DNA of 64,000 bases, taken from Spironucleus salmonicida. Its lineage: Eukaryota. The notes beneath the pieces are model-generated. The model did not search any database. It had not been told where the DNA came from and saw nothing but the letters and a program-made list of their open reading frames with translations. The translations under genes were made by a program, and so were the position numbers. The stretch spans positions 744,001-808,000 of the forward strand of contig NC_090596.1 of NCBI RefSeq assembly GCF_000497125.1. The letters are read 5' to 3'. Of the stretch, positions 4,955-44,225 are shown piece by piece. Position 1 is the first letter of the stretch. The number at the start of each line of letters is the position of its first letter.

Positions 4955-5724
4955 GGGTTTTTGTTTTCTAATTTTTTTGTTTTCTAATTTTTTAATTCTT
5001 TAATTTTCTAATTTTTTAATTTTTTAATTTTCTAATTTTTTAATTTGGGGTGTAGGGTTTAATTTTTGGGGTTTCTGAATGATGCAGAAATGGGGGGGGG
5101 GTGAAATAGTGAAATTAAGAATTTTGGGGTAAGGGGGTCGTGCTAGGATGATATGGGGGAGAAATAGTATATGTCTATTTGCATGCGAGAATTGGAGACG
5201 GGAAATCAAGTTTCCAGGGTAAGATCGTGTTGGACTGGACCGCAGCAGACGAATTCAAATTAAATCAGTTGAATGAGAACTGATGAGAGGTATAATGATA
5301 AGAGCTAAATTATTAGCGTTAAATTGTTGAAAATCGTCCTAAATACTTGATGGGAATCGTTATAAGGACTTTATGATTAATTTTGTACTTCTGATTTAGC
5401 TTGCTGTAGATAAAATGTGTTAGTTGTAATAAGTATATTTAAATATTGGTTTTAATATCTAAATGAGCAGTTTTAGTAAATGCTGATTTGATAAATATTT
5501 TATGATTTACTATAATAAATTTAATAATGTTCATTTTTTGAATAAATATTCTGTAATTTTTTACCTTATTTTTTGCGCACTCAATTATTAATAATAGTAT
5601 ATTGATAAAAATTATACAAAATATGAACGTCATAGTATATTTAGATATCAAATATAGCATCTTGGTTTGTAAAACTTTGATAATTTATCTCTTTTAATTA
5701 TAAATTAGATAGTAATAATTTTAA

Positions 5725-6105
5725 ATGGGATTAGGTGTAACAGAATTTTTAGACGATAATGAAGACTTTATTCTTAATCGGAAAAGCCATTAACCTGACC
5801 CAGTTATATATAAATAAATCAGAATGTCAACAGAGGCGAAGAAAGATATATAGAAACCAAAACTAATTAAATTGATAAGGAAAGAAAGGTTAGATGTACT
5901 CCCAGAGATAAATGAAGATGATAATAACTATGATTTTATGCTTGGATCATCACCAATGAATACCGTCGCACTTTAGTTTTATGCATGTAAGACAAACATT
6001 TAATTTAACACTCCCAACACGTCAAACAAGTCGCATGGGGTGAACTACCAGCTTAGCTACCTGCTGGACCTGGAGCGGGCGGACGCGTGTCGTTTCGTGG
6101 ACTGA
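5725..6105 (+). CDS. Hypothetical protein, 126 aa; 3' end lies in IR1 arm; paralog of 15640-16014
   Basis: MGLGVTEFLDDNEDFILNR...HGVNYQLSYLLDLERADACRFVD. Confidence 0.7.
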
Positions 6106-6152
6106 CCGCTCCGAATTTTGCTTTATATTCGCGCAAGCGAGGCGCACTCCGA

Positions 6153-6395
6153 ATGCACACCCAGACCTCGCCCCAGGCCCGCCGCCCCCGCAGGCCCGTG
6201 CTCGTGAACCCGTAGACGCTCGCCTTCCTGAAGCGCCAGGACGAGGCCCGCCGCAAGCTGCCGTACCGGCTCGAGAACGACGCCGTGGCGCAGCTGCTCC
6301 AGGGCTGGGCCTTCGCGGAGCCCGCAGACCCCGAGGACTCGGACGACCTCGTGGCGCGGATCCGGGCTACCGCGCGGCCCGAGCTCCCCTTCTGA
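6153..6395 (+). CDS. Hypothetical protein, 80 aa
   Basis: GCACTCCGA directly before ATG; high GC3; one in-frame TAG. Confidence 0.6.
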
Positions 6396-6415
6396 TTTTG
6401 CCCCTCCGCTCCAAG

Positions 6416-6658
6416 ATGCCGCCGCGGTACACCGTGCAGCACCAGCTGCTCCACGTGCACTCGGACTCCGAGGACGACCGCGACCGCAAGAAGTGCGTGC
6501 AGATCGCGCGCGCCATCAAGCTCAAGAACAACGAGGTGAAGAACCTTATCATCATCGCCCGCGACATGGAGGAGCGTGCCCGCGACCAGCTCGACCTGAT
6601 CCTCACGCGCGCCAACCGCTACATCTGGCTGCTGGAGCAGCTCGTGGCCAAGATGTGA
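6416..6658 (+). CDS. Hypothetical protein, 80 aa
   Basis: MPPRYTVQH...; CCGCTCC upstream; strong GC3 bias. Confidence 0.65.
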   Translation: MPPRYTVQHQLLHVHSDSEDDRDRKKCVQIARAIKLKNNEVKNLIIIARDMEERARDQLDLILTRANRYIWLLEQLVAKM

Positions 6659-6685
6659 CCCTTCCCAATTGCACTCCGCTCCGAA

Positions 6686-7306
6686 ATGGAGCAGTTCGTC
6701 GACGCGCAGGCCGCCCGCGACTTCTTCAGCGCCTCCCAGCAGACGCGCTTCGCCCCGGTCACGTACGTCCCGCCCTCAGCGGAGGCCCTGGCGGTGCCGC
6801 AGGGGGGCGCACGCACCAGGGGGCCGCGGACGGTCGACCCGGCGCAGCTGAAGGCGCAGATCACGAAGCGCGTGGAGGCCTACACCATCGACCAGCTGAC
6901 GCGCGAGCTGCTGCGGGACAACGGGCTGGTGCTGACGCCGCAGGAGCGCGAGTACCAGCGCCTGCAGGAGACGGCCTACCTCATCAAGAAGGGCGCGCAG
7001 GTCCGCGGCACGCACGTGAACCTCAAGGAGCTGTCGGCCGCGCGCAAGGGGGAGCGTAGCCAGCGGCTCGCGCGGGAGGAGGAGCTGCGCGCGATGGGCG
7101 CCGTGGGCCAGATCCGCAGCGGGAAGCACATCGTGCTGGAGACGGACCGCTACAAGGACGCGGGCGAGGTCTCGGTGCGGAAGCAGCAGCGCCACATCCT
7201 CAAGATCGCCAAGAGCTTCAGCGACCGCCGGGGCGTGCGCAGGCACAAGATCGTCCGCAGCGGCGGCGGGATCACCGGCGAGCACGTGGTGCGCCACACG
7301 AAGTGA
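6686..7306 (+). CDS. Hypothetical protein, 206 aa
   Basis: CACTCCGCTCCGAA before ATG; strong GC3 bias; AGTGA stop. Confidence 0.75.
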   Translation: MEQFVDAQAARDFFSASQQTRFAPVTYVPPSAEALAVPQGGARTRGPRTVDPAQLKAQITKRVEAYTIDQLTRELLRDNGLVLTPQEREYQRLQETAYLIKKGAQVRGTHVNLKELSAARKGERSQRLAREEELRAMGAVGQIRSGKHIVLETDRYKDAGEVSVRKQQRHILKIAKSFSDRRGVRRHKIVRSGGGITGEHVVRHTK

Positions 7307-7332
7307 GCCTTGCAGTCCCACTCCGCTCCACA

Positions 7333-7599
7333 ATGGACAGCACGCCCTCGGAGCCCTCCAGCGCCCCCAGTTCCTCCTCCCGCTCCGCCAGCGAGCGGGT
7401 GCCGCGCCTACGCAAGCGCGCCAGGGGCCCGGGCCTGCGCTCGCGCATCTTCCCCCACACGGAGGTCAGCGACGACTGCGCCCTGCCCGCACTGGCGGCC
7501 ACTGAGCCTACCACGGACGAGGAAGTGGACTCTGGGGCCGGCTGGCCGCGGGCGCTGCTGTACGCGTGGTTCCTGGACCGCAAGCAGGACGAGCGCTGA
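7333..7599 (+). CDS. Hypothetical protein, 88 aa
   Basis: CCCACTCCGCTCCACA before ATG; MDSTPSEP... Confidence 0.55.
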   Translation: MDSTPSEPSSAPSSSSRSASERVPRLRKRARGPGLRSRIFPHTEVSDDCALPALAATEPTTDEEVDSGAGWPRALLYAWFLDRKQDER

Positions 7600-7685
7600 C
7601 GCACGGTTTCACCGGTACAGGTTCACGCACCAATGTTTGGAGTGAGAGTATACTCAGTATTCGGCCCATTCTCGTCCGCCCATAA

Positions 7686-7883
7686 ATGCTGCTTCAGCGC
7701 AAGTCCTTCTCCCTGCGATCCCCACCGCAGCCCCTGCCGCCCCTACGGGCCTGCCCCCGCGTCTCCCTCGCCGAGTTCGAGGGCGCGGCGCTCCCCGGCC
7801 TCACGGGCGGTCTGGACGCGGCGCTCGAGGCCCTGCAGCGCCTGGTGCTGGGCGTGTGCGGCCCTTCCACTGAATGCCGGTGA
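7686..7883 (+). CDS. Possible small protein, 65 aa (mirror copy 13862-14059)
   Basis: AAATG start, GC3-rich; overlaps the next gene by 10 bp. Confidence 0.35.
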   Translation: MLLQRKSFSLRSPPQPLPPLRACPRVSLAEFEGAALPGLTGGLDAALEALQRLVLGVCGPSTECR

Positions 7884-8332
7884 CGTGCGGCGTGTGCGGC
7901 CGCGAGGTGGCCAACAGCTTCAAGCTGCAGGAGCACCTGCGCACCCACTCCAAGTCCCAGCCGCACGCCTGCACCACCTGCGGCAAGGCCTTCGCCCGTG
8001 TGCCGAACCTGCGCCGCCACGAGCTGGTCCACGCCGAGGCCCGGCCCAGGGAGACCTGCGGCGTGTGCGAGCGCCAGTTCTACGACGCGCACACGCTGCG
8101 CCGCCACCTGCGGCTGCATGAGACCCGCGGCGCCTGCCCCTTCTGCCCCGAGGCAGTCAACTGGCGCTTCCTCCGCGGCCACGTGCAGCGGCTCCACGCG
8201 GGCGCGCTGGTGGGGTCCGAGCGCGCTGCCGAGTTCGGGCTGTGCACGCGATGCGGGGCCCTGGTGCGGTACCAGTGCGACGCGGCGGCGCACGAGCGGG
8301 CCTGCGCGCGGCGAACGAGTGAGACGGAATGA
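7874..8332 (+). CDS. C2H2 zinc-finger protein, 152 aa
   Basis: Tandem CxxC-x12-HxxxH fingers (CGVC..HLRTH; CTTCGKAF..LRRHELVH; CGVC..HLRLH). Confidence 0.9.
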   Translation: MPVTCGVCGREVANSFKLQEHLRTHSKSQPHACTTCGKAFARVPNLRRHELVHAEARPRETCGVCERQFYDAHTLRRHLRLHETRGACPFCPEAVNWRFLRGHVQRLHAGALVGSERAAEFGLCTRCGALVRYQCDAAAHERACARRTSETE

Positions 8333-8335
8333 GAC

Positions 8336-8668
8336 TCACTGAGGCCCGGCGGCCTGGTGGGCGCAGCGGTGCACCCACCTCCGCAGGTACCGCACGCAGA
8401 AGTCCAGGTACTCGAGCCGGTCGAAGGCGGCCTTGAGCGTGGTGGCCATGTCGCGGATCGCGCGCAGGCTATCGTCGATGCGCTCCTGCAGCTCGAGCGA
8501 GCGCAGCGTGGCGAGGTTATCGGCGCTCGCGAAGATGTCCTCGGAGGAGCCGGGCGCGCCGGCGGGGTCGTAGTGGGGCGGGGCGGCGACGAAGGGCGCG
8601 AGGTCGGCCACCATGGCCAGCAGGGACCTGCTCGGGAGCGCGGGCAGCGGCACCAGCTGGTTGCGCAT
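8336..8668 (-). CDS. Hypothetical protein, 110 aa
   Basis: CACTCCGCGCTCCAAA before ATG; GC3 bias; AGTGA stop. Confidence 0.6.
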   Translation of the reverse strand: MRNQLVPLPALPSRSLLAMVADLAPFVAAPPHYDPAGAPGSSEDIFASADNLATLRSLELQERIDDSLRAIRDMATTLKAAFDRLEYLDFCVRYLRRWVHRCAHQAAGPQ

Positions 8669-9210
8669 TTTGGAGCGCGGAGTGAAGTCCTTGGTCACTT
8701 GTCCTCTGTCACTTGTCGGCGGGTGCGGCGGCCGGCAGGCGCGCGTCGTCGGCCCTGCCGTGCAGCAGCGTGCGCTTGAGCGTGCGGAAGGTCCTCAGGA
8801 GGGCGCGCATTTTCGGGATTAGCGCGCAGCGTATAATAATGCCCGGCCCCCACTTCCATCTCGCCGCACCACTCCCTCGCGTGCGCAAGGTGTGTTGCTG
8901 AGGCTCCGGCGTGCCGACGTGTTCAAAGCCTTGCTAAAGCGGTCCTGCTGAGTACCCTGCAGTTTCCGGAAACGGGCGCAGCTGCCGGGTAATTAGGCAG
9001 TGCACATTTCCAAGTATCTATTTGCTGCGGTATCCGCGGCGCCCTGCTGCCATCTGCGGCCCGGCCCTCACTCGCCGCCATGGACCTCCGGTGCCCAGCC
9101 GAGACCCCTAACGTCGTGAGGGTCCTGCCCAGACCGCCTCCCTGAAAACGTCACCTCTCACTCGCCCCTACCGACATCGCCATCCCTCTTCCCAGCCCAA
9201 AGTCCCTCAC

Positions 9211-10845
9211 TCACAGCCCCGCCGCCCGCAGCTGCTCCGGCCCGTCCGCCTGCCCCACGAACCAGCAGCACAGGTGGTTCAGCAGGCGCTCCCCGCCCAG
9301 CAGCTCCAGGTCCGCCGCCTCGCCCCGCGGGAACAACCGCCGGAACTGGCCCAGGCGCGCGCCCTCGTCCACCAGCTGCCACAGCACGCGGCGCTCGAAG
9401 CGCGTGAGGTCCGGGACCGTGCCGAAGCTGCGCAGGTCCGCGCCGGTCTTGAAGCTGTGCTTCTGCTCCCCGTTCTCCAGCCGGAAGGGGCGGTACTGCC
9501 GGCAGTCCGCGCTCTTCAGCCGGCCGCCGAAGCGCGCGATCGTGGCCTCGTCCTCGGTGGCGAAGCGCTCCGGCACCGCTGCCATTCCTGACTGGTGGAA
9601 CGCGGGCGCGTAGCCCAGCAGGTTCAGCGTGTTCACCATCAGCGGGTACTTGATCTCCACGTCCAGGTCAGTCTTCGTGTTCTTCGAGGGCGACTTGTTG
9701 ATCTCCACCAGCAGCGCCTCGCCCGCTTCCGTGAACATGATGTCGAAGCCGTACAGCCCGAAGTTACGTCGCGGGTACACGTTCGCTAGACCAGCATTGT
9801 GCGAAAAAAGATGCATTCTTGGCTCAACGCCAATTAATGTTTTAATGATTAGCTCATCTACGTCTTTTAATATATAATCTTTAACCGCGCCTTTTTTAGT
9901 ATCAGCAAGAATCGTACTGCCAGCTTTGAAAAATTATCTATTGTCATCCAAATAGTCCAGTAATTCGGTCCATTTCCATTTGCTAGGAAATCCGTCCATA
10001 TGGAACTCATCCGACTTGAAATTGATTGAAAAATTCGTCAAATGCATAGTTTTGTCATCAAAATTACCATCGTTAACTTTCTCGTATTTATGAGTAGCAA
10101 ATCTCCCCAATCCTTCGTCATAAATATAGAAAATCAAGGGATCGATGCTCGTGACCATCACATACAGCCTAATATCGAATTTGAAGCCATTTATGATCAG
10201 TAAATTGTCCATATACTCTTAAATCACAGCAGGCACGTCCAAGCCCTTCGGTAGCTCGCTATCGCGCTTGATAAGCTCAATTCCGCGTCCCTCTGATGCC
10301 ATTGCAGGCTTGTATATATAAAAGCCCTCCCCGGCTTCCTCGCGGAATTCCTCCAAACCGTCTGGAATTATCCAAGTTTACGGCACGAATTAGTACTTTT
10401 GGGGCCATTTGAGCTTCATTTCGCGCAGGAGTTGGCCCATTGTGTCCTTCCGGCCGATGGCGTTCGAGCCCGGAAACTGGCCGCAAAGCTGCCCCGGCGA
10501 AAGCGTTTTGTAGAAGTCCAGCCCTAGCGGGTGGCCCCAACAGATGTTAAACTACTGTTGGAGCTCCCGGGGTGCCACCGCAAATCCAGCGTCCTAGAAG
10601 GCGCTCGAAACGGCCGGCTACTGCGTTCCATGAAAAATGGCGAGCAAATTCTGCGGCGGAATCTCGAAATCATCCGAAATTTTTCGGGGAGTGGAAAGCG
10701 AAATGGAAGGAAGTGGAATTGTGGAGTTTGAGCTGTAGAAAGACAGGATTGGTGGGTGATTCGGGATAATTGAAGGGATTAAGCGGGGGAGGGGTAGAAA
10801 ATCGGCAGGTAGGTTTCTGCGGCGCGCGAGCTCTTCGGAGTTCAT
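9211..10845 (-). CDS. Tubulin-tyrosine ligase-like (TTLL) protein, probable polyglutamylase, 544 aa
   Basis: One code-6 frame joins three track ORFs: FPGSNAIGRKD, YIYKP..S.GRGI, VIQEY, KFDIRLYV, EGLGRFAT, HLTNFSIN, FGLYGFDIM, LLVEINKSPS. Confidence 0.93.
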
Positions 10846-11961
10846 TTTTTGAGCGATGTGGAGTGATGTAAAAATATTATTATTGTATAGTAATAATAAA
10901 GTTTATAAAATCGTTGAAATTATAAGTATTAATATAATATAGATATAATAATTATAATGAAAAATATTTAAAAATTATTAATTAGGTAAATTGGAAATGC
11001 GGAGGTGGGACGTTTTTGATAAAGAATTAACGTGGACAGTGAAAAGCGGTATTGCATGGTAGTTTATGTATACATTTATTTTCTATATGAAAATTATTTT
11101 TTCATATAGAAGATTTGGTCAAAATTTGTTTTTCAATATATACATATAGTGATGCTGTTAACCGTAAATATTTTAGTGGTTTAAATATTTCTATAAATAG
11201 TTTAGTACTGATGAAGGGTTCTATCTACTACTCAATATGCTAGTAAATGTAGTGACTGCTCATTTTTAATTTAAGTTTCGTTTCACTTTTTGACGAAATA
11301 CATTAAAAGTTATAAGTTAGAATTAGAAAATTGGTAAAAACTAAATAGTATATTTTTTAAATCAAACTATCTCTTTATTAAATAGTTGATGTAAAAGCTG
11401 CCTAAAAGTTTCAACATTACAATAATTTTAAATTGATTATCCTGGGTTTACATGAGTATAGTATATATAATAGAATTTATTTGCAGGTTTTAATCAAACA
11501 AATTATGTATAATTAGTATTAAGCAAAGTGTTGAATTTTATAAAATGAGACCGTGTTAAAAATAGCTCAAAAAGAAACAGCTTTCTGTTACAATCCCACA
11601 AATCTAATTAAAATACCACAATAAAACAGATATCGATTTATTACATGAAAAGTAGCCAGATACAAGCAAATTTTTCTGTCTTAACCATAAACTGTGGAAT
11701 TTTAATAAATTAGACACTTAGGACTTAGCAGAATTGATTGATATTGAAGATACAGATAAAATGATAAATAACAGTTATACTTTAAAGTGTAGCGTGGACC
11801 TATTGTTTTAAACAAATAATTAGTGCATGAATATTTTAAATGGATTACTAGAAGACAGTGACTGCTAAGCTAATAATATTGAGTGAATTTGTTTGTGCAT
11901 TTATGTCTATATGATTTAAATAAATAATATCAACTAAGTGCTTTAAAATACATATCCTCTG

Positions 11962-12534
11962 AACGTGTACCCGCGACGTAACTTCGGGCTGTACGGCTTC
12001 GACATCATGTTCACGGAAGCGGGCGAGGCGCTGCTGGTGGAGATCAACAAGTCGCCCTCGAAGAACACGAAGACTGACCTGGACGTGGAGATCAAGTACC
12101 CGCTGATGGTGAACACGCTGAACCTGCTGGGCTACGCGCCCGCGTTCCACCAGTCAGGAATGGCAGCGGTGCCGGAGCGCTTCGCCACCGAGGACGAGGC
12201 CACGATCGCGCGCTTCGGCGGCCGGCTGAAGAGCGCGGACTGCCGGCAGTACCGCCCCTTCCGGCTGGAGAACGGGGAGCAGAAGCACAGCTTCAAGACC
12301 GGCGCGGACCTGCGCAGCTTCGGCACGGTCCCGGACCTCACGCGCTTCGAGCGCCGCGTGCTGTGGCAGCTGGTGGACGAGGGCGCGCGCCTGGGCCAGT
12401 TCCGGCGGTTGTTCCCGCGGGGCGAGGCGGCGGACCTGGAGCTGCTGGGCGGGGAGCGCCTGCTGAACCACCTGTGCTGCTGGTTCGTGGGGCAGGCGGA
12501 CGGGCCGGAGCAGCTGCGGGCGGCGGGGCTGTGA
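11962..12534 (+). pseudogene. 5'-truncated TTLL copy (last ~190 codons)
   Basis: Identical to the TTLL 3' end; the upstream frame has TGA at 11884 and lacks intact TTL motifs. Confidence 0.75.
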
Positions 12535-13076
12535 GTGAGGGACTTTGGGCTGGGAAGAGGGATGGCGATGTCGGTAGGGGCGAGTGAGAGGTGACGTTTT
12601 CAGGGAGGCGGTCTGGGCAGGACCCTCACGACGTTAGGGGTCTCGGCTGGGCACCGGAGGTCCATGGCGGCGAGTGAGGGCCGGGCCGCAGATGGCAGCA
12701 GGGCGCCGCGGATACCGCAGCAAATAGATACTTGGAAATGTGCACTGCCTAATTACCCGGCAGCTGCGCCCGTTTCCGGAAACTGCAGGGTACTCAGCAG
12801 GACCGCTTTAGCAAGGCTTTGAACACGTCGGCACGCCGGAGCCTCAGCAACACACCTTGCGCACGCGAGGGAGTGGTGCGGCGAGATGGAAGTGGGGGCC
12901 GGGCATTATTATACGCTGCGCGCTAATCCCGAAAATGCGCGCCCTCCTGAGGACCTTCCGCACGCTCAAGCGCACGCTGCTGCACGGCAGGGCCGACGAC
13001 GCGCGCCTGCCGGCCGCCGCACCCGCCGACAAGTGACAGAGGACAAGTGACCAAGGACTTCACTCCGCGCTCCAAA

Positions 13077-13409
13077 ATGCGCAACCAGCTGGTGCCGCTG
13101 CCCGCGCTCCCGAGCAGGTCCCTGCTGGCCATGGTGGCCGACCTCGCGCCCTTCGTCGCCGCCCCGCCCCACTACGACCCCGCCGGCGCGCCCGGCTCCT
13201 CCGAGGACATCTTCGCGAGCGCCGATAACCTCGCCACGCTGCGCTCGCTCGAGCTGCAGGAGCGCATCGACGATAGCCTGCGCGCGATCCGCGACATGGC
13301 CACCACGCTCAAGGCCGCCTTCGACCGGCTCGAGTACCTGGACTTCTGCGTGCGGTACCTGCGGAGGTGGGTGCACCGCTGCGCCCACCAGGCCGCCGGG
13401 CCTCAGTGA
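13077..13409 (+). CDS. Hypothetical protein (copy of 8336-8668)
   Basis: Mirror copy in IR1. Confidence 0.6.
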   Translation: MRNQLVPLPALPSRSLLAMVADLAPFVAAPPHYDPAGAPGSSEDIFASADNLATLRSLELQERIDDSLRAIRDMATTLKAAFDRLEYLDFCVRYLRRWVHRCAHQAAGPQ

Positions 13410-13412
13410 GTC

Positions 13413-13871
13413 TCATTCCGTCTCACTCGTTCGCCGCGCGCAGGCCCGCTCGTGCGCCGCCGCGTCGCACTGGTACCGCACCAGGGCCCCGCATCGCGTG
13501 CACAGCCCGAACTCGGCAGCGCGCTCGGACCCCACCAGCGCGCCCGCGTGGAGCCGCTGCACGTGGCCGCGGAGGAAGCGCCAGTTGACTGCCTCGGGGC
13601 AGAAGGGGCAGGCGCCGCGGGTCTCATGCAGCCGCAGGTGGCGGCGCAGCGTGTGCGCGTCGTAGAACTGGCGCTCGCACACGCCGCAGGTCTCCCTGGG
13701 CCGGGCCTCGGCGTGGACCAGCTCGTGGCGGCGCAGGTTCGGCACACGGGCGAAGGCCTTGCCGCAGGTGGTGCAGGCGTGCGGCTGGGACTTGGAGTGG
13801 GTGCGCAGGTGCTCCTGCAGCTTGAAGCTGTTGGCCACCTCGCGGCCGCACACGCCGCACGTCACCGGCAT
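13413..13871 (-). CDS. C2H2 zinc-finger protein (copy of 7874-8332)
   Basis: Identical translation. Confidence 0.9.
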   Translation of the reverse strand: MPVTCGVCGREVANSFKLQEHLRTHSKSQPHACTTCGKAFARVPNLRRHELVHAEARPRETCGVCERQFYDAHTLRRHLRLHETRGACPFCPEAVNWRFLRGHVQRLHAGALVGSERAAEFGLCTRCGALVRYQCDAAAHERACARRTSETE

Positions 13872-14145
13872 TCAGTGGAAGGGCCGCACACGCCCAGCAC
13901 CAGGCGCTGCAGGGCCTCGAGCGCCGCGTCCAGACCGCCCGTGAGGCCGGGGAGCGCCGCGCCCTCGAACTCGGCGAGGGAGACGCGGGGGCAGGCCCGT
14001 AGGGGCGGCAGGGGCTGCGGTGGGGATCGCAGGGAGAAGGACTTGCGCTGAAGCAGCATTTATGGGCGGACGAGAATGGGCCGAATACTGAGTATACTCT
14101 CACTCCAAACATTGGTGCGTGAACCTGTACCGGTGAAACCGTGCG

Positions 14146-14412
14146 TCAGCGCTCGTCCTGCTTGCGGTCCAGGAACCACGCGTACAGCAGCGCCCGCGGC
14201 CAGCCGGCCCCAGAGTCCACTTCCTCGTCCGTGGTAGGCTCAGTGGCCGCCAGTGCGGGCAGGGCGCAGTCGTCGCTGACCTCCGTGTGGGGGAAGATGC
14301 GCGAGCGCAGGCCCGGGCCCCTGGCGCGCTTGCGTAGGCGCGGCACCCGCTCGCTGGCGGAGCGGGAGGAGGAACTGGGGGCGCTGGAGGGCTCCGAGGG
14401 CGTGCTGTCCAT
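14146..14412 (-). CDS. Hypothetical protein (copy of 7333-7599)
   Basis: Mirror copy in IR1. Confidence 0.55.
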   Translation of the reverse strand: MDSTPSEPSSAPSSSSRSASERVPRLRKRARGPGLRSRIFPHTEVSDDCALPALAATEPTTDEEVDSGAGWPRALLYAWFLDRKQDER

Positions 14413-14438
14413 TGTGGAGCGGAGTGGGACTGCAAGGC

Positions 14439-15059
14439 TCACTTCGTGTGGCGCACCACGTGCTCGCCGGTGATCCCGCCGCCGCTGCGGACGATCTTGT
14501 GCCTGCGCACGCCCCGGCGGTCGCTGAAGCTCTTGGCGATCTTGAGGATGTGGCGCTGCTGCTTCCGCACCGAGACCTCGCCCGCGTCCTTGTAGCGGTC
14601 CGTCTCCAGCACGATGTGCTTCCCGCTGCGGATCTGGCCCACGGCGCCCATCGCGCGCAGCTCCTCCTCCCGCGCGAGCCGCTGGCTACGCTCCCCCTTG
14701 CGCGCGGCCGACAGCTCCTTGAGGTTCACGTGCGTGCCGCGGACCTGCGCGCCCTTCTTGATGAGGTAGGCCGTCTCCTGCAGGCGCTGGTACTCGCGCT
14801 CCTGCGGCGTCAGCACCAGCCCGTTGTCCCGCAGCAGCTCGCGCGTCAGCTGGTCGATGGTGTAGGCCTCCACGCGCTTCGTGATCTGCGCCTTCAGCTG
14901 CGCCGGGTCGACCGTCCGCGGCCCCCTGGTGCGTGCGCCCCCCTGCGGCACCGCCAGGGCCTCCGCTGAGGGCGGGACGTACGTGACCGGGGCGAAGCGC
15001 GTCTGCTGGGAGGCGCTGAAGAAGTCGCGGGCGGCCTGCGCGTCGACGAACTGCTCCAT
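14439..15059 (-). CDS. Hypothetical protein (copy of 6686-7306)
   Basis: Mirror copy in IR1. Confidence 0.75.
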   Translation of the reverse strand: MEQFVDAQAARDFFSASQQTRFAPVTYVPPSAEALAVPQGGARTRGPRTVDPAQLKAQITKRVEAYTIDQLTRELLRDNGLVLTPQEREYQRLQETAYLIKKGAQVRGTHVNLKELSAARKGERSQRLAREEELRAMGAVGQIRSGKHIVLETDRYKDAGEVSVRKQQRHILKIAKSFSDRRGVRRHKIVRSGGGITGEHVVRHTK

Positions 15060-15086
15060 TTCGGAGCGGAGTGCAATTGGGAAGGG

Positions 15087-15329
15087 TCACATCTTGGCCA
15101 CGAGCTGCTCCAGCAGCCAGATGTAGCGGTTGGCGCGCGTGAGGATCAGGTCGAGCTGGTCGCGGGCACGCTCCTCCATGTCGCGGGCGATGATGATAAG
15201 GTTCTTCACCTCGTTGTTCTTGAGCTTGATGGCGCGCGCGATCTGCACGCACTTCTTGCGGTCGCGGTCGTCCTCGGAGTCCGAGTGCACGTGGAGCAGC
15301 TGGTGCTGCACGGTGTACCGCGGCGGCAT
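15087..15329 (-). CDS. Hypothetical protein (copy of 6416-6658)
   Basis: Mirror copy in IR1. Confidence 0.65.
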   Translation of the reverse strand: MPPRYTVQHQLLHVHSDSEDDRDRKKCVQIARAIKLKNNEVKNLIIIARDMEERARDQLDLILTRANRYIWLLEQLVAKM

Positions 15330-15349
15330 CTTGGAGCGGAGGGGCAAAA

Positions 15350-15592
15350 TCAGAAGGGGAGCTCGGGCCGCGCGGTAGCCCGGATCCGCGCCACGAGGTC
15401 GTCCGAGTCCTCGGGGTCTGCGGGCTCCGCGAAGGCCCAGCCCTGGAGCAGCTGCGCCACGGCGTCGTTCTCGAGCCGGTACGGCAGCTTGCGGCGGGCC
15501 TCGTCCTGGCGCTTCAGGAAGGCGAGCGTCTACGGGTTCACGAGCACGGGCCTGCGGGGGCGGCGGGCCTGGGGCGAGGTCTGGGTGTGCAT
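15350..15592 (-). CDS. Hypothetical protein (copy of 6153-6395)
   Basis: Mirror copy in IR1. Confidence 0.6.
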
Positions 15593-15639
15593 TCGGAGTG
15601 CGCCTCGCTTGCGCGAATATAAAGCAAAATTCGGAGCGG

Positions 15640-16014
15640 TCAGTCCACGAAACGACACGCGTCCGCCCGCTCCAGGTCCAGCAGGTAGCTAAGCTGGTAG
15701 TTCACCCCATGATAGTTTGTAGATAAACTGATACGACCAAATTTATTTAAGTTTATATGAGCATACATTGAGACGAATGACATGATCAGTGTACTTGATT
15801 AGTGCATGAAATTTAATGTATTCTTATTCTCTTTTTATACGATAGCAGGAAGTATTTATTACTTAATCAATTTCGTACATTTTGTTTAAGCTGATTATAT
15901 TTTTACTTAAGGCTGCTATAATATTTGCTATACACTAACTTATATCAAAATGGGACTGCTATTGAGAATAAAGTCATCATTTGCATCTAGAAATTCAGTA
16001 ACATCTAATTCCAT
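15640..16014 (-). CDS. Hypothetical protein, 124 aa; diverged paralog of 5725-6105
   Basis: MELDVTEFLDANDDFILNS... stays in frame to the identical C-terminus HGVNYQ...CRFVD. Confidence 0.7.
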
Positions 16015-16193
16015 TTGATAAAAAATAATAGCCTTAAAATTATATTTAAACGTGTTCTCAGCTTAATTTTTGTAAATATGTAGTTGCTCATTTTATGACT
16101 ATCTGGTAGATTACTTAATTTTTTCAGTCAATTTAAATTAGTGTTAAATAATATATTTATTATACATAAATATAATCATTATACAATAAAAAT

Positions 16194-16601
16194 ATGAACC
16201 AGCACAACCTGCCATTATTGTAGCTGATTGATAGCATATCACCGCTAAGCTCGCCTAAATAATCAATATCTCCCAGAATGGAAGTATTCAGCATGAAGCT
16301 CAAAATGTCTCCCAGGTTAGAGGAGGAGCCCAATTTGGCCCACGCGAAGCTACCCTTCGAGTTCATCGAGGAAGCGAGGCCGTAATCGATTTTAGCCAAT
16401 TTTTACCAGCAGTAGGAGAAGCGAAGTATGCTTGTTCGGTAGGCTGCTCCCTTCTGCCCTGGAAAGATCATATCAGCCCGTAAGCAGAAGGTCTACCAGG
16501 CCGAAAAGGCGTTCGTGGTGAGCAAGTTCCCGGAAGTGACGCAAAGGCATGTGACGGCGTTAGATCTGGAGCACTTGGTGCGCTTCGCCGGGGCGCAATG
16601 A
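16194..16601 (+). CDS. Hypothetical protein, 135 aa
   Basis: Code-6 ORF MNQHNLPLLQ...LVRFAGAQ; last codons lie in the IR2 arm. Confidence 0.6.
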
Positions 16602-16621
16602 TGGCGTGAGTTGTAGCATTT

Positions 16622-17287
16622 TCACTCGACCTACACGAGGAACACATCCTCCCTGGGGTCCTCCGGAACCGCTAAGCGCACCGTGAGACATCCGTCCGCG
16701 AACGCTGCGCGAATGCTGCTCCGGTCCGCGAACTCAGGGAGCTGGAAGCGGTGAACGCGGCCGTCCGCGGTTACCTCCAGGGTTCCCTAAGCATCTGCGC
16801 GCACGCGCGTTGCGGCCCGGGAGGAGGCTGGTACGGTGGCGCAGTACTCATCCCCAGAGCGGCGGAGCGTCTGTTGGCTCGCCGCGTCACAGGCCCTCAT
16901 CTGGCTCCCTGTGGCCTTGTTCTGGGAATCGTACGTCTTAAACGCCGCGCCGGGCGTCAGTGCCTCCGTTCCGTTTTAGATCGTGCCCTGGTCGAAGCGG
17001 TTGGGCTGGGATGGAAGCGCAGTGAAGAGGTGCTGGAGAGCCTCCTCGCGCTGGGCCATGCGGCGGGCCTTCTCCTCGCGTTCCCTCTGAGCCCTATGCT
17101 GTTCGTAGGCCCGCGCGGATTGCTGCTCCTGTCTGCGCAGGTGCTCCTCTTGCTGTCTCTAGTACAGTTCTTGCTGGGCCTGCTTGCCTCTGTGGGCCTC
17201 AGCCCGGCGCTGGCGGGCCTACTGCTGCTCAATGGCGTATTGGTAGTCATAAGAGTCGTCGTAGTTGTTGCCGAAGAGTCCGAACAT
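16622..17287 (-). CDS. Small heat-shock protein (HSP20/alpha-crystallin domain), 221 aa
   Basis: C-terminal HRFQLPEFADRSSIRAAFADGCLTVRL and VQVE (I-x-I-like) tail; Q/E/R-rich N-terminus. Confidence 0.8.
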
Positions 17288-17847
17288 TAATGAGGAGCTC
17301 GGAATTGATTCCCGTCCGCAAAATTTACTCGGATCAATTCGGTGGGATTTGGTCGGAATTGCAGCCAGGAGCAACCTCGTGTTGGCAATAACCTGTCGGA
17401 TGCGTCACCATTGCCTCCGGACCAGGACCATGTGTCTGCCGCTATCTGCTACCCCAGCATGTGGTTTCAGTCCGAACCTGCCAATTTATATATAATATCA
17501 GGTTGCACTGTATATGATTTCTGGTTGGGTGCAGCTCATCTAGATGCGGGCAGAACGTCAGTACTTCCTTGCTGCCAACATTCAATGTGAGAGAGCAGCG
17601 TTAGGAACGTGTTGAACATCCTTTATATCTCTACGGTCTGAGTTACAAGACCAGAAAGCCCCAGAGATGTCCCGGCTGGCACTCCTGCTGGTATGGGCGG
17701 ACAAGATTCAACCCCATCAGATATATATGCAGCCAACAACAGTTCAGCTGGGGCTATGGTCATGGATGGACCTACTCTGTCGTCTAGTGGCTGTGGAGAT
17801 ACGTTCGATTGTACTAATGCATAGCCTAAATCAGTTTCATTTAGCAA

Positions 17848-17921
17848 GCTCTTGTAGCGCAGTTGGTTAGCGCGTTGGTCTTATGTACCGAAGGTCGTGG
17901 GTTCAATCCCCATCTGGAGCA
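17848..17921 (+). tRNA. tRNA-Ile(UAU), intronless
   Basis: Cloverleaf: D arm GCGCAGTTGGTTAGCGC, anticodon loop CT-TAT-GT, T arm GTGGG-TTCAATC-CCCAT. Confidence 0.92.
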
Positions 17922-17932
17922 AGCTTTTTAAA

Positions 17933-18178
17933 ATGCAGCCTCGCTACTCCGAGTCAGCCCAGTTCGGTCAAGCGCCCTTCCGGCCCAGACTTCCCCTGCC
18001 ACTGCCCACGTTCTTTGAGGCCCAGACCCTGTTGCGGTCCCTCGCCCAACGCGATGCCGGGTATCAGGCTTTCCTCGGCGTGCACCCCTTCGCGCCCTGC
18101 CGCCACGCGGGTACAGCTCTAGGTGTACCGATATTCTGCCCCTGCTGCCGGAACATAGTACTCGTCGGGTTCCAGTGA
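17933..18178 (+). CDS. Hypothetical protein, 81 aa
   Basis: AAAATG start; MQPRYSES...FCPCCRNIVLVGFQ; AGTGA stop. Confidence 0.5.
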   Translation: MQPRYSESAQFGQAPFRPRLPLPLPTFFEAQTLLRSLAQRDAGYQAFLGVHPFAPCRHAGTALGVPIFCPCCRNIVLVGFQ

Positions 18179-18783
18179 GACTGCCTAGGAGCGAAGGCAG
18201 GTGGATCGCTTGAGCGCTACCGAACACGTATCGCCGCACCTGGCTGGGATGATTCAAATAAACATTATATCAGGATTGTCCAAATAGTTTAAGTATTTCA
18301 GTAGAGAATTTGTAACTAGGTCTGTTAAAATTTTCGTTACTTATTGTATACTATTCATTAAATAGTCAATGGATGTATATTAATTATTGTTGATATCAAT
18401 ACTGAGCTTACTTAAAATAAATCAATAAAAATATTCCGAATATAATGAAAATTATAGTATTAATAAGTTTAACTTCAATTTTTATAACATCTGTTTTCTA
18501 AGTTTATGAAAATTATTTATAGATATTTGCTGTTCGACTTTGCATTTAAAGTATAAATATAACAATTAAACTATATATATCATGCTTAGAAAATGTAGAT
18601 CAAACTGTAGATGACAAATTTTATTTTTGAATACTTTTCTCTTAAATAATATCTTCAATATATAATTAAAATACTTGGTAGCTTTACATGTAGTAGATTG
18701 AAAGTACTAGATATATTTGCATAATTTTACTAAGTATATCATAATAATAGTAGTATAATATATAAATTATTAACATTGCAGAA

Positions 18784-22865: not shown

Positions 22866-23387
22866 AATACTAAGATTAACTTATTATTTATTAATACGTA
22901 GGCATCAAATAATAATTATCTGTGAATAATTACTATAGTCCTAGTTTAGATCTAGATAGTGATTATCTTATGAAATTTGAACGTAATGAAACTGTTTTAA
23001 TAAATTATTTCTAATATGTAATTGAAAATGGTTAAAATATTTTTCTGTTAATTCTTTTAACTCGTGTATTCATTATCAATATATTTGCACAAGTAACTAA
23101 TTAGATATATATGAGTAATACTTAGAACATAAATAGATAAAATTTAATACCTTTTATAAGATTACCCTATTATATACACTATTTAACATCAATATGAAAC
23201 TAGTAGTCATATTATTGTCATACAAATACATTAAAAGTTCAGTCAAATTATCATATCTACTAATACAGATCAATATATAAAAGGACCAGTACAATAAGTA
23301 TCACTATATCAAATCATCCCAGCCAGGTGCGGCGATACGTGTTCGGTAGCGCTCAAGCGATCCACCTGCCTTCGCTCCTAGGCAGTC

Positions 23388-23633
23388 TCACTGGAACCCG
23401 ACGAGTACTATGTTCCGGCAGCAGGGGCAGAATATCGGTACACCTAGAGCTGTACCCGCGTGGCGGCAGGGCGCGAAGGGGTGCACGCCGAGGAAAGCCT
23501 GATACCCGGCATCGCGTTGGGCGAGGGACCGCAACAGGGTCTGGGCCTCAAAGAACGTGGGCAGTGGCAGGGGAAGTCTGGGCCGGAAGGGCGCTTGACC
23601 GAACTGGGCTGACTCGGAGTAGCGAGGCTGCAT
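23388..23633 (-). CDS. Hypothetical protein (copy of 17933-18178)
   Basis: Mirror copy in IR2. Confidence 0.5.
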   Translation of the reverse strand: MQPRYSESAQFGQAPFRPRLPLPLPTFFEAQTLLRSLAQRDAGYQAFLGVHPFAPCRHAGTALGVPIFCPCCRNIVLVGFQ

Positions 23634-23644
23634 TTTAAAAAGCT

Positions 23645-23718
23645 TGCTCCAGATGGGGATTGAACCCACGACCTTCGGTACATAAGACCAACGCGCTAAC
23701 CAACTGCGCTACAAGAGC
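23645..23718 (-). tRNA. tRNA-Ile(UAU), second copy
   Basis: Mirror of 17848-17921. Confidence 0.92.
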
Positions 23719-24278
23719 TTGCTAAATGAAACTGATTTAGGCTATGCATTAGTACAATCGAACGTATCTCCACAGCCACTAGACGACAGAGTAGGTCCAT
23801 CCATGACCATAGCCCCAGCTGAACTGTTGTTGGCTGCATATATATCTGATGGGGTTGAATCTTGTCCGCCCATACCAGCAGGAGTGCCAGCCGGGACATC
23901 TCTGGGGCTTTCTGGTCTTGTAACTCAGACCGTAGAGATATAAAGGATGTTCAACACGTTCCTAACGCTGCTCTCTCACATTGAATGTTGGCAGCAAGGA
24001 AGTACTGACGTTCTGCCCGCATCTAGATGAGCTGCACCCAACCAGAAATCATATACAGTGCAACCTGATATTATATATAAATTGGCAGGTTCGGACTGAA
24101 ACCACATGCTGGGGTAGCAGATAGCGGCAGACACATGGTCCTGGTCCGGAGGCAATGGTGACGCATCCGACAGGTTATTGCCAACACGAGGTTGCTCCTG
24201 GCTGCAATTCCGACCAAATCCCACCGAATTGATCCGAGTAAATTTTGCGGACGGGAATCAATTCCGAGCTCCTCATTA

Positions 24279-24944
24279 ATGTTCGGACTCTTCGGCAACA
24301 ACTACGACGACTCTTATGACTACCAATACGCCATTGAGCAGCAGTAGGCCCGCCAGCGCCGGGCTGAGGCCCACAGAGGCAAGCAGGCCCAGCAAGAACT
24401 GTACTAGAGACAGCAAGAGGAGCACCTGCGCAGACAGGAGCAGCAATCCGCGCGGGCCTACGAACAGCATAGGGCTCAGAGGGAACGCGAGGAGAAGGCC
24501 CGCCGCATGGCCCAGCGCGAGGAGGCTCTCCAGCACCTCTTCACTGCGCTTCCATCCCAGCCCAACCGCTTCGACCAGGGCACGATCTAAAACGGAACGG
24601 AGGCACTGACGCCCGGCGCGGCGTTTAAGACGTACGATTCCCAGAACAAGGCCACAGGGAGCCAGATGAGGGCCTGTGACGCGGCGAGCCAACAGACGCT
24701 CCGCCGCTCTGGGGATGAGTACTGCGCCACCGTACCAGCCTCCTCCCGGGCCGCAACGCGCGTGCGCGCAGATGCTTAGGGAACCCTGGAGGTAACCGCG
24801 GACGGCCGCGTTCACCGCTTCCAGCTCCCTGAGTTCGCGGACCGGAGCAGCATTCGCGCAGCGTTCGCGGACGGATGTCTCACGGTGCGCTTAGCGGTTC
24901 CGGAGGACCCCAGGGAGGATGTGTTCCTCGTGTAGGTCGAGTGA
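24279..24944 (+). CDS. Small heat-shock protein, second copy
   Basis: MFGLFGNNYDDSYDY...DGCLTVRL...LVQVE. Confidence 0.8.
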
Positions 24945-25365
24945 AAATGCTACAACTCACGCCGTCATTGCGCCCCGGTGAAGCGCACTAGGAACTATTC
25001 TTTATAGCTTTTTATTATGGATAACTTAATGACTGTTTTAAATTCTGAGAATAGTGTCGGAAAATACAATTTTAAAACAGAATCATAGATATTATAAATA
25101 TATATGAATATATATTTAAAAGAGACTAGAACAGAGATCAAAGAAATTTGTCAAAATTAGATAATTAGTGAAAATAACCTAATGTTATCAAACATAAATA
25201 ATTACATTTAAATCTTATTTGAATCGTAATCTTACTATGATAATGAAATAGTATATACGTAATTAAATTAATTGGGTCCATTTTTGAATTTTTTATAAAC
25301 TTATATAAATTTAATAACAGGATTCTTTTTAAATCCTATAATTAAAATTCAAAAGAAATATCCAT

Positions 25366-29810: not shown

Positions 29811-29904
29811 GCCTTTAGAGGAATTAGAGTGATATTATTTGAATAATATATTATAAATATAATTCTGTTGTAAAAATGTTTACAAACATTTACATACGTT
29901 TAAA

Positions 29905-32900
29905 ATGCTGAAAAATATAAATTAACGTTTAACCAAAAAAAAATCCTGTATTTTAATTTGGATTATCGTAAGTTTAATATTATTAACAGGGTTAATAGTG
30001 TCTTTAATATTTATATTTACTAATATTTTTAAGCGCTAAGATAATACTAAGTACTTTGAAGACTATAAATGGAGTTAGAAAAAATTAATTGTTTCTTAGA
30101 ATGTAAGAACTTCATTTTCTTACTAAGATAATATTTTTTCTAATCATAACTACGCGTTCGACCGCCTGGTGGAGTTCAGCCTGTTTCACGGCTTCACCGA
30201 GGTAACTCTGTTCGCCGGCAGCGTCGAGTGGGAGTCCCTGGACTTCGACCGGGGTAGACTGCCGCACGAGGAGGATGTCCTGTACGCACTAAGGAAACTG
30301 CGTGCAAAGGGTATCAAGGCGAGCCTGGCGTTTTACATCAATGATGACATCAACAATATGACCAGCTGGCAGTACTCCGGGAAGATAGCCGCGATCGCCA
30401 AGCGCATTAATTCTGCTGACACCCCGATCAGCATGATCCACTTTGACCAGGAGCCAGACCAGGCGGAGTCTTACTCGGCCCTGGTCCAGATGCTCAAACT
30501 GGCGAACGACATATTCCCCACTGGCACTGCCGTCAAGCCTGCCTGGTTGCGTACACCGCTAAGTGGTATTTCGTTCCCCGCCGACATTCAGGCGATCATC
30601 GCAGACGAGTCCCAGGTAGCGACGCTCGCTGACCTGATCAACCGCCTCACCACCAACTCTCAGGTGATGGCCTACTCCAATACCTGGGACGACGTGTAGG
30701 CCCTCGCGGAATTGATGAAGCAGAGCGCTGCGAAATTCGGAAAGTCGTCCACGCCCATCCTAGAGACCAGCTTCGGCGGAAACTTGCCAGACACCGAGAC
30801 CCTGTACCAGCAGGTCCAGGGTAACCAAACTAAATGGTACCGCGACGTGACTGCCTTCGCCGCCAAGCACCGGTCGGTCGTGATCCACGACTACCGCCAC
30901 TACTATTCAAACTTCCTCTGCTCCGAGCCAGTGATCTGGAAGGGTGTTTCTCAGACCCGCAACTGCGCCGCCCCGGTCATCCCCAACAGCCAGGCGCCCG
31001 ACATTGAGTACGATTTTACCATACCTGGGGACGGTGGTGAGCCGGAACCCGAAGTCGTGCCCACCTTTATTGCGTATCAGGATGCGTAGAAGGGTCTTTA
31101 CGCCTGGGACCACGCTAAGGAGCGTATAGACGGCAAGCCTGCCTGGGAAATGCTGCTCCGGAACCATAACTACGCGTTCGACCGCCTGGTGGAGTTCAGC
31201 CTGTTTCACGGCTTCACCGAGGTAACTCTGTTCGCCGGCAGCGTCGAGTGGGAGTCCCTGGACTTCGACCGGGGTAGACTGCCGCACGAGGAGGATGTCC
31301 TGTACGCACTAAGGAAACTGCGTGCAAAGGGTATCAAGGCGAGCCTGGCGTTTTACATCAATGATGACATCAACAATATGACCAGCTGGCAGTACTCCGG
31401 GAAGATAGCCGCGATCGCCAAGCGCATTAATTCTGCTGACACCCCGATCAGCATGATCCACTTTGACCAGGAGCCAGACCAGGCGGAGTCTTACTCGGCC
31501 CTGGTCCAGATGCTCAAACTGGCGAACGACATATTCCCCACTGGCACTGCCGTCAAGCCTGCCTGGTTGCGTACACCGCTAAGTGGTATTTCGTTCCCCG
31601 CCGACATTCAGGCGATCATCGCAGACGAGTCCCAGGTAGCGACGCTCGCTGACCTGATCAACCGCCTCACCACCAACTCTCAGGTGATGGCCTACTCCAA
31701 TACCTGGGACGACGTGTAGGCCCTCGCGGAATTGATGAAGCAGAGCGCTGCGAAATTCGGAAAGTCGTCCACGCCCATCCTAGAGACCAGCTTCGGCGGA
31801 AACTTGCCAGACACCGAGACCCTGTACCAGCAGGTCCAGGGTAACCAAACTAAATGGTACCGCGACGTGACTGCCTTCGCCGCCAAGCACCGGTCGGTCG
31901 TGATCCACGACTACCGCCACTACTATTCAAACTTCCTCTGCTCCGAGCCAGTGATCTGGAAGGGTGTTTCTCAGACCCGCAACTGCGCCGCCCCGGTCAT
32001 CCCCAACAGCCAGGCGCCCGACATTGAGTACGATTTTACCATACCTGGGGACGGTGGTGAGCCGGAACCCGAAGTCGTGCCCACCTTTATTGCGTATCAG
32101 GATGCGTAGAAGGGTCTTTACGCCTGGGACCACGCTAAGGAGCGTATAGACGGCAAGCCTGCCTGGGAAATGCTGCTCCGGAACCATAACTACGCGTTCG
32201 ACCGCCTGGTGGAGTTCAGCCTGTTTCACGGCTTCACCGAGGTAACTCTGTTCGCCGGCAGCGTCGAGTGGGAGTCCCTGGACTTCGACCGGGGTAGACT
32301 GCCGCACGAGGAGGATGTCCTGTACGCACTAAGGAAACTGCGTGCAAAGGGTATCAAGGCGAGCCTGGCGTTTTACATCAATGATGACATCAACAATATG
32401 ACCAGCTGGCAGTACTCCGGGAAGATAGCCGCGATCGCCAAGCGCATTAATTCTGCTGACACCCCGATCAGCATGATCCACTTTGACCAGGAGCCAGACC
32501 AGGCGGAGTCTTACTCGGCCCTGGTCCAGATGCTCAAACTGGCGAACGACATATTCCCCACTGGCACTGCCGTCAAGCCTGCCTGGTTGCGTACACCGCT
32601 AAGTGGTATTTCGTTCCCCGCCGACATTCAGGCGATCATCGCAGACGAGTCCCAGGTAGCGACGCTCGCTGACCTGATCAACCGCCTCACCACCAACTCT
32701 CAGGTGATGGCCTACTCCAATACCTGGGACGACGTGTAGGCCCTCGCGGAATTGATGAAGCAGAGCGCTGCGAAATTCGGAAAGTCGTCCACGCCCATCC
32801 TAGAGACCAGCTTCGGCGGAAACTTGCCAGACACCGAGACCCTGTACCAGCAGGTCCAGGGTAACCAAACTAAATGGTACCGCGACGTGACTGCCTTCGC

Positions 32901-36258: not shown

Positions 36259-36591
<333 letters not shown>

Positions 36592-44193: not shown

Positions 44194-44225
44194 GGGCGGT
44201 GCTCCCACGGTGACCTGCCGCCGCG

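Follow-up and report, generated by a model that had tools for sequence, protein, structure and literature searches.

IR1 is a palindrome of approximately 9.7 kb in a 64-kb window of DNA that is most probably nuclear DNA of the diplomonad Spironucleus salmonicida; the window is the whole stretch analyzed here. The two arms of IR1 are identical, and the ends of this identity cut through genes. At the outer edge, two paralogous open reading frames, ORF1 and ORF2, are diverged outside the arms and identical inside them. At the inner edge, a tubulin-tyrosine-ligase-like (TTLL) gene changes abruptly in base composition. We conclude, with a probability of approximately 0.8, that IR1 arose by a genuine inverted segmental duplication of the diplomonad nuclear genome, that this event is old, and that its copies are kept identical by GC-biased, arm-to-arm gene conversion. 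The divergence pattern and the composition step suggest that this conversion is ongoing and that it favors G and C.

Structure of the palindrome

The components of IR1 are as follows.

6034..9784, left arm, GC 0.60-0.75, exact reverse complement of 11961-15711
9785..11960, unique spacer of 2176 nt, holding the 5' two-thirds of TTLL together with 1.1 kb of AT-rich sequence (GC 0.24)
11961..15711, right arm, exact reverse complement of 6034-9784

Each arm is 3751 nt long, there are no mismatches between them, and identity stops within one base at both edges. As in palindromes maintained by conversion, the arms are inverted and near-perfect and the spacer is unique and non-palindromic. Comparison of the two halves of the spacer with each other revealed no homology, the observed score being matched in 141 of 200 shuffles. 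No motif common to the arm termini was seen by eye among the palindrome edges printed, a comparison for which no formal test was made.

Genetic code

The window alternates between AT-rich DNA (GC 0.2-0.35) and GC-rich blocks (0.6-0.75). Under the standard or bacterial code, its real genes are interrupted by TAA and TAG; under NCBI table 6, very long frames are open. One of these spans 1908 codons, of which 87 are TAA/TAG and none is TGA; its product is an ABC transporter with two domains (ABC_tran, 1.2e-47). Other table-6 frames encode dyskerin, an Rpb3-like subunit, ribosomal protein S4e, an amino-acid transporter, and TTLL. Based on the ABC transporter frame and on the report that TGA is the sole stop codon of the S. 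salmonicida genome (PMC3916229), TAA and TAG were read as sense codons. Every gene checked in the window terminates in TGA, and a Blastocrithidia-type code is therefore unneeded.

Homology across the outer edge

The features at the outer edge are listed below.

5693..5724 (+), AT-rich conserved segment preceding ORF1, containing a TATA-like box and, ahead of the ATG, an A-run; included in the significant local alignment
5725..6105 (+), ORF1, 126 codons with TAA/TAG read as Gln; codons 1-103 AT-rich and outside the arm, codons 104-126 and the TGA inside the arm
15640..16014 (-), ORF2, paralog of ORF1, 124 codons, with 10 TAA/TAG in its 83-codon middle
16015..16050 (-), conserved stretch upstream of ORF2, counterpart of 5693..5724 in the same local alignment

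An earlier note on this DNA had described the two ORFs as running in frame, for 126 and 124 residues, through a diverged middle into a shared tail of 23 residues. The frames hold at these lengths when TAA and TAG are read as Gln; under table 11 they do not, since ORF1 then contains 5 in-frame stops and ORF2 contains 10. The tail was found as described. Codon 104 of ORF1 begins exactly at 6034, which gives an identical tail of 23 residues, and both ORFs terminate within the arm at a shared TGA.

Flank DNA was compared using local and constrained alignments tested against shuffled sequence, and codon divergence was computed by the Nei-Gojobori method using table 6. The first 54 nt of the ORFs are identical at 44 positions. 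The best local alignment between the 1-kb flanks pairs 5693-5778 with 16050-15961 at a score of 65, compared with a mean of 26.3 and a maximum of 43 among shuffles, none of which (0/300) reached the observed value. The N-terminal similarity on which the earlier note relied is thus significant, and the aligned block takes in approximately 30 nt upstream of the ATG. A motif back-translated from the N-terminal block matched only the ORF1 and ORF2 sites in the window, where the expected number was 0. Extended farther out, from the conserved block into 4955-5692 and 16051-16577, the comparison revealed no similarity (159 of 300 shuffles reached the score), so that the outward extension proposed earlier succeeded as far as 5693 and 16050, with nothing detectable beyond.

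The middle of the ORFs, from the conserved block to the arm (255 and 249 nt), was weakly above chance when compared as DNA: 153 of 272 columns were identical, and 3 of 300 shuffles reached the score. As protein in the ORF frame, the global score was 26 against a shuffle maximum of 20, and the local score was 55 against 48, with 0 of 2000 shuffles reaching either. The two other reading frames gave scores of 27 and 29, which is chance level. The diverged middles are therefore homologous, as the earlier note had supposed. Codon divergence across the edge was as follows.

N-terminal block, 18 codons: dS (synonymous divergence) 0.99, dN (non-synonymous divergence) 0.11
Aligned middle, 81 codons: pS (proportion of synonymous differences) 0.72, saturated; pN (the same for non-synonymous) 0.49; 22 of 81 residues identical
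Tail inside the arm, 23 codons: 0 differences

The 10 differences in the 18-codon block comprise 5.5 synonymous and 4.5 non-synonymous changes on 10 and 44 sites, respectively, a synonymous excess with P(X>=5) = 0.024 and P(X>=6) = 0.004. The pattern of concerted evolution, with a dS of approximately 0.99 followed by saturation outside and no differences inside, was found at the outer edge of IR1 only.

Because the flanks of ORF1 and ORF2 are homologous, the duplication formerly reached at least ~340 nt past the present outer edge (5693-6033). It is old, given a dS of ~0.99 in 18 codons and a saturated middle. Since old homology lies outside 6034 and identity begins there and runs inward, 6034 marks the boundary of a conversion tract and not the breakpoint of the duplication. 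The earlier note had proposed the same, and our data support it for this one edge. Moreover, the duplication is old and yet its arms are identical, which indicates that correction between them is frequent.

Several points weigh against this reading. Flank homology was found at only one of the seven palindrome edges tested, the outer edge of IR1. It was not found at the inner edge of IR1, at the outer edges 16578/24988 and 42842/44609, or at the inner edges 18254/23312, 59245/60231, and 43230/44221. At the inner edge of IR1 and in the other palindromes, identity may stop where the duplication originally broke, or neutral flanks may have decayed fully. Polishing with Quiver and Pilon (PMC9509377) could slightly inflate the perfect identity of IR1. 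The GC bias of conversion is read from pattern and not from outgroup-polarised substitutions, the sole proxy for polarised change being a protein-level excess of Gly, Ala, Arg, and Pro relative to four homologs. Finally, the arm mismatches of two other palindromes in the window pair A/T with G/C in 11 of 11 cases, which is a weak test of bias because most types of mutation belong to that class.

Coding status of ORF1 and ORF2

Judged from sequence features, ORF1 and ORF2 most likely represent a small protein gene specific to this lineage, of which ORF2 may be a decaying copy given the 10 TAA/TAG in its 83-codon middle. Both copies would be expressed. Alternatively, the ORFs are not protein genes: the 86-nt block would be a retained promoter or regulatory element, or the loci would be remnants of dead genes, and the open frames would be a by-product of a single-stop code. 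We consider this unlikely, while giving it real weight, as a number of results count against a gene. No Pfam family matched ORF1 or ORF2. A word-indexed search of proteins of 69-221 aa and a phmmer search of 1.84 billion protein representatives each returned 0 matches to ORF1. Both ORFs are absent from the protein sets searched, in which the neighboring arm gene A3 and TTLL are present. The middle of ORF2 looks like non-coding DNA, with 12% TAA/TAG and a flat GC content at the three codon positions (GC1/2/3) of 0.24/0.29/0.29. The stop context of both ORFs, ACTGA, is atypical relative to the consensus reported for S. salmonicida, [A/T]GTGA (PMC3916229). Finally, we estimate the chance of meeting no TGA over ~100 AT-rich codons at ~0.16, which is not unlikely.

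A non-coding origin does not account for the concentration of the 18-codon differences at synonymous sites, for the significance of the protein similarity of the middle in the ORF frame only, or for the retention of the ATG, the frame, and the same TGA in both copies. The GC1/2/3 of the tail is 0.74/0.30/0.83. The tail thus looks coding in the ORF frame, as GC2 stays at 0.30 in an arm where free sites have turned nearly all G/C. Similarly, the middle of ORF1 (GC1/2/3 of 0.34/0.31/0.34, 5.9% TAA/TAG) resembles real AT-rich genes of the window such as the ABC transporter (0.40/0.31/0.36, 4.4%), and the TATA-like box and A-run upstream of its ATG match promoter elements described in S. salmonicida (PMC3916229). 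A structure predicted for ORF1 with a two-row alignment as input had low confidence values (mean predicted local distance difference test, 38.4; predicted template modeling score, 0.13) and speaks neither for nor against a protein. The homology argument is independent of whether ORF1 and ORF2 are genes.

An intron reading, in which an 18-codon first exon is followed by an AT-rich intron and an exon in the arm, was rejected: no GT follows the conserved block, frame-specific protein similarity runs through the middle, and the S. salmonicida genome (GC 33.5%) is reported to hold 4 introns, with a conserved intron motif of the ACTAAC type (PMC3916229, PMC9509377). Rfam and tRNA scans of the window yielded three tRNAs in total, none of them located at ORF1 or ORF2.

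Composition steps at the arm edges

The TTLL gene spans the inner edge of the left arm, and part of it recurs on the right.

9211..10845 (-), complete TTLL gene, 544 aa, crossing the inner arm edge at codon 355; Pfam TTL 4.9e-53, residues 118-410
11961..12534 (+), truncated 3' copy of TTLL in the right arm, last 190 codons; upstream sequence unrelated

The closest relatives of the TTLL protein are from Hexamita inflata (40% identity), S. salmonicida itself (a paralog, 37%), and Giardia. They speak against a ciliate as the source of the DNA, an origin that the reading of TAA/TAG as Gln might have suggested. The Pfam match and the invariant columns common to four diplomonad homologs continue uninterrupted across the arm edge, which establishes that TTLL is one gene and not a chimera. 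Its GC content at third codon positions (GC3) is 0.963 in the 190 codons encoded by the arm and 0.534 in the 354 codons outside, and the drop from 0.95 to 0.2-0.45 occurs within ~20-30 codons of the edge (from codons 361-380 to codons 311-360). The encoded protein differs as well: Gly, Ala, Arg, and Pro together make up 0.326 of the arm-encoded part, compared with 0.13-0.21 over the corresponding columns in the four homologs, and 0.237 of the part outside, which is ordinary (0.185-0.241 in the homologs). Farther from the arm, codons ~90-160 (10360-10570, -) have a GC3 of 0.7-0.8 and the codons beside the edge 0.2-0.5, so that there is no simple gradient from the edge. The right-arm fragment is identical to the 3' end of the full gene, and its frame is open upstream, through an unrelated AT-rich leader, to a TGA.

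The genes identified in the left arm are listed below.

6153..6395 (+), arm gene A1, 80 aa, GC3 0.975; one in-frame TAG; mirrored on the right arm
6416..6658 (+), arm gene A2, 80 aa, GC3 0.975; ATG preceded by a C-rich, promoter-like motif
6686..7306 (+), arm gene A3, 206 aa, GC3 0.985; an orphan in the public protein set
7874..8332 (+), arm gene for a C2H2 zinc-finger protein, 152 aa, GC3 0.947; Pfam zf-C2H2 5.3e-15
8336..8698 (-), arm gene of 120 aa, no family, GC3 0.958

Codon-phase analysis revealed densely packed genes in the arm, with G or C at nearly all third positions (GC3 0.95-0.99). Non-coding DNA has a GC content of 0.55-0.65 in the arm versus 0.20-0.27 in unique intergenic DNA. 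Because the non-coding DNA of the arm is also GC-rich, the GC-ward force acts on DNA, and codon selection is not its cause. GC enrichment is thus limited to the converting segment and affects silent and non-coding sites alike, as expected of a GC-biased tract. The composition step is the stronger independent sign, and it fits long-running GC-biased conversion.

A few bases before the ATG of each of A1-A4 lies a C-rich stretch of the ACTCCG/CTCCGCTCC type (6135-6152, 6398-6415, 6668-6685, and 7315-7332). These stretches resemble a C-rich putative promoter motif published for S. salmonicida (PMC3916229).

The composition data bear most directly on a younger origin of the identity. According to this alternative, ORF1 and ORF2 were already old, diverged paralogs when an existing GC-rich block was copied over the second locus in a single recent conversion or duplication-replacement, its ends falling at 6034 and 9784 by chance. 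One very recent event would indeed leave no difference across 3751 nt, and the lack of flank homology at the inner edge and the presence of only a truncated TTLL piece in the right arm also agree with it. We nevertheless regard such an event as quite improbable. It leaves unexplained why GC3 rises from ~0.3 to ~0.95 exactly at both ends of the block, in two different genes, and why repeated DNA is GC-rich in the window and genome-wide (PMC9509377). Further, a GC3 of 0.96-0.99 requires long exposure to a GC-ward force that depends on copy number.

Assembly and origin of the block

A fold-back or chimeric assembly, in which the assembler or a chimeric read mirrored a single GC-rich block, is close to refuted. 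It would readily produce perfect identity over 3751 nt and several perfect or near-perfect inverted repeats in one 64-kb window, and polishing with multi-mapped reads can remove small differences (PMC9509377). Neither hallmark of a fold-back, mirror identity continuing into the flanks or the lack of a unique spacer, was found. With an artefact of this kind, the right flank would be the exact reverse complement of the left; instead, it is a diverged paralog of the left flank and, farther out, unrelated to it. The 2176-nt spacer is unique, the TTLL frame passes from it into the left arm only, and the GC3 step coincides with both arm edges. In addition, two sister palindromes retain 2 and 9 differences between their arms, from which it follows that the assembly resolves arms separately. 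The read N50 published for the PacBio assembly of S. salmonicida, 14.6 kb, exceeds the 9.7-kb length of IR1 (PMC9509377). The earlier note had called the diverged paralogs the strongest internal argument against a fold-back; the GC3 step in TTLL and the unique spacer carrying the 5' two-thirds of that gene are at least as strong.

Insertion of a foreign or mobile GC-rich block (transferred, viral, or transposon DNA) twice in opposite orientations into an AT-rich host, which the sharp contrast in composition and the mostly orphan arm genes might suggest, is hardly credible and is contradicted by TTLL continuity: the conserved C-terminal third of this host protein is encoded in the arm, and its Hexamita, Giardia, and Spironucleus homologs align across the edge. 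Moreover, A1 contains a TAG that is read as sense, arm-gene ATGs are preceded by the C-rich promoter-like motif of the host (PMC3916229), and the arm ends as printed show no shared terminal motif by eye.

Proposed mechanism

For an old duplication maintained by GC-biased conversion, we propose the following course. The original duplicated unit would have included at least the whole ORF1/ORF2 gene and its promoter, ~340 nt past the present outer edge. Repeated arm-to-arm gene conversion confined to 6034-9784 would have kept the copies identical inside this segment. Outside it, they would have diverged to saturation except where selection holds, namely in the 18 N-terminal codons and, weakly, in the remaining protein. 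The flanks are probably now too diverged to pair or to extend heteroduplex, which would bar tracts from passing and fix the edge inside the gene. If mismatch repair favors G/C, weakly constrained sites in the arms would have become G/C over a long time, to a GC3 of 0.95-0.99 and a non-coding GC of ~0.6 compared with ~0.25-0.35 outside, and the same bias would have altered which amino acids the arm contributes to TTLL. At ORF1/ORF2, the outcome would be two paralogs with different bodies and one 23-residue tail in common. At TTLL, it would be a full gene on one side and, on the other, a truncated fragment (11961-12534) that is continually "refreshed".

Comparison with known systems

IR1 belongs to a kind already known, palindromes under GC-biased conversion, of which it is a new and extreme case. 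The palindromes of primate X and Y chromosomes undergo GC-biased, arm-to-arm gene conversion (PMC8981503, PMC3723533). Like IR1, they have inverted arms, a unique spacer, arm identity (>99.9% in primates) kept by conversion, and a GC-ward bias. Unlike IR1, whose arms measure kilobases and whose edges cut genes, they have arms of tens to thousands of kb and a GC shift of a few percent; the effect in IR1 is extreme, with GC3 going from ~0.35 to ~0.97 together with a shift in amino acids.

In Giardia lamblia, also a diplomonad, 14 identical inverted pairs of vsp genes lie head-to-head or tail-to-tail, their ORFs separated by 2190-3847 bp. Their flanks are identical to a point of abrupt divergence, and they were interpreted as recent duplications (PMC2996952). 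IR1 is similar in its identical copies, its 2176-nt spacer, and its abrupt edges. In contrast to these surface-antigen genes, the IR1 arms hold a zinc-finger gene, orphans, and the 3' part of TTLL, and diverged homology continues past the edge, which points to age plus conversion. The term "GC content" has 0 occurrences in the text of the vsp paper (PMC2996952). Plastid inverted repeats likewise consist of identical copies and a spacer, are homogenized by conversion with GC-biased effects, and can have their edges in genes (PMC4524490, PMC5713276). IR1 shares the identical inverted copies, the spacer, and an edge inside genes; plastid repeats differ in being organellar, in occurring once per genome, and in their modest GC effect.

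In S. salmonicida, 19.2% of the genome is reported to lie in duplications of >=2 kb with >=95% identity, with a mean GC of 44.7% compared with 30.7% elsewhere, and gene conversion is mentioned for regions of cysteine-rich genes (PMC9509377). The GC-rich repeats of the window agree with these published GC-rich duplicated regions. The same paper does not report a GC3 near 1, composition steps within genes, or diverged homology outside repeat edges (PMC9509377), and the terms "inverted" and "palindrom" have 0 occurrences in the text of the two S. salmonicida genome papers (PMC3916229, PMC9509377). Our search, which left subscription papers and bioRxiv supplements outside its scope, found no paper that describes palindromes in Spironucleus or another diplomonad, or conversion with a GC bias in these organisms.

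We tentatively suggest that any duplicated DNA in S. salmonicida, inverted or tandem, might enter a lasting, GC-biased copy correction. Such correction would rewrite the sequence nearly in full, bringing GC3 toward 1, doubling non-coding GC, and shifting protein composition, and its edges would be sharp and stable and could sit in genes, generating chimeric paralogs and proteins of mosaic composition. If so, ectopic recombination in a eukaryote without observed sex could be read directly from the GC landscape of approximately one-fifth of the genome, and the duration of conversion in each repeat could be dated from edges that, like 6034, have decayed homology outside them. To our knowledge, no sexual cycle has been observed in S. 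salmonicida, a unicellular parasite.

For IR1 itself, an ambiguous perfect inverted repeat in a long-read assembly becomes a dated one. The palindrome would be an unusually clean natural example of GC-biased conversion near saturation, in which single genes are split into AT-rich and GC-rich parts. It would be evidence of intense homologous recombination in diplomonads, whose sexual cycle is unproven, and would offer a mechanism for the published, unexplained GC-richness of S. salmonicida duplicated regions. For annotation, the analysis draws attention to two small ORFs that lack annotation and to a truncated piece of TTLL that conversion alone would keep "alive".

Other repeats in the window

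Comparison of the window with itself identified 25,834 repeated bases with a GC content of 0.607, compared with 0.356 in the remainder. In 200-nt bins, 102 of the 122 that were GC-rich (>=0.55) were repeated, and 133 of the 135 that were AT-rich (<0.40) were unique. The 2 repeated AT-rich bins should correspond to a long (AAT)111 microsatellite at 36259-36591, since no other AT-rich match was among the self-matches listed. The 20 GC-rich bins that are unique in the window could be repeated elsewhere in the genome.

The two sister palindromes are as follows.

16578-18254 / 23312-24988, palindrome 2, 1677-nt arms with 2 mismatches near the outer edge, 5057-nt spacer
55476-59245 / 60231-64000, palindrome 3, arms of at least 3770 nt with 9 mismatches, 985-nt spacer; continues past the end of the window

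Palindrome 2 lies 866 nt from IR1. Each of its arms contains a tRNA-Ile(UAU) and an HSP20-like ORF, and its spacer contains a tRNA-Phe and the gene for ribosomal protein S4e. The center of palindrome 3, made up of the arm ends and the spacer, recurs 16 kb upstream at 42475-44602 with 98.7% identity over 2128 nt and with arms of its own of 377-389 nt. The spacer ORF duplicated between these two sites has a GC3 of 0.89.

Composition also changes within genes elsewhere. The ORF at 29833-33063 (+) contains three tandem units of 1020 nt (repeats 30142-33054) that are 99.8-99.9% identical, and its GC3, which is 0.215 over the unique 5' part, rises to 0.769 across the repeats, a step within a gene at the edge of a direct repeat. 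The ORF at 36793-39834 (+), which is Gln-rich and coiled-coil-like with 77 TAA/TAG, has a GC3 of 0.28 in its 5' part and 0.62 from ~39100; it has no repeat partner in the window, and a partner of its 3' part may lie elsewhere in the genome.

An inverted pair at 51660-52128 / 54747-55215, 91% identical and 2.6 kb apart, lies in ORFs resembling cysteine-rich (CXXC) membrane proteins and brings to mind the inverted vsp pairs of Giardia. The DNA between its members is GC-rich (0.56-0.67), yet unique within the window. Finally, a T-rich tandem array with 8-nt/24-nt periods occupies the intergenic segment 4964-5046, directly downstream of the Rpb3-like gene.

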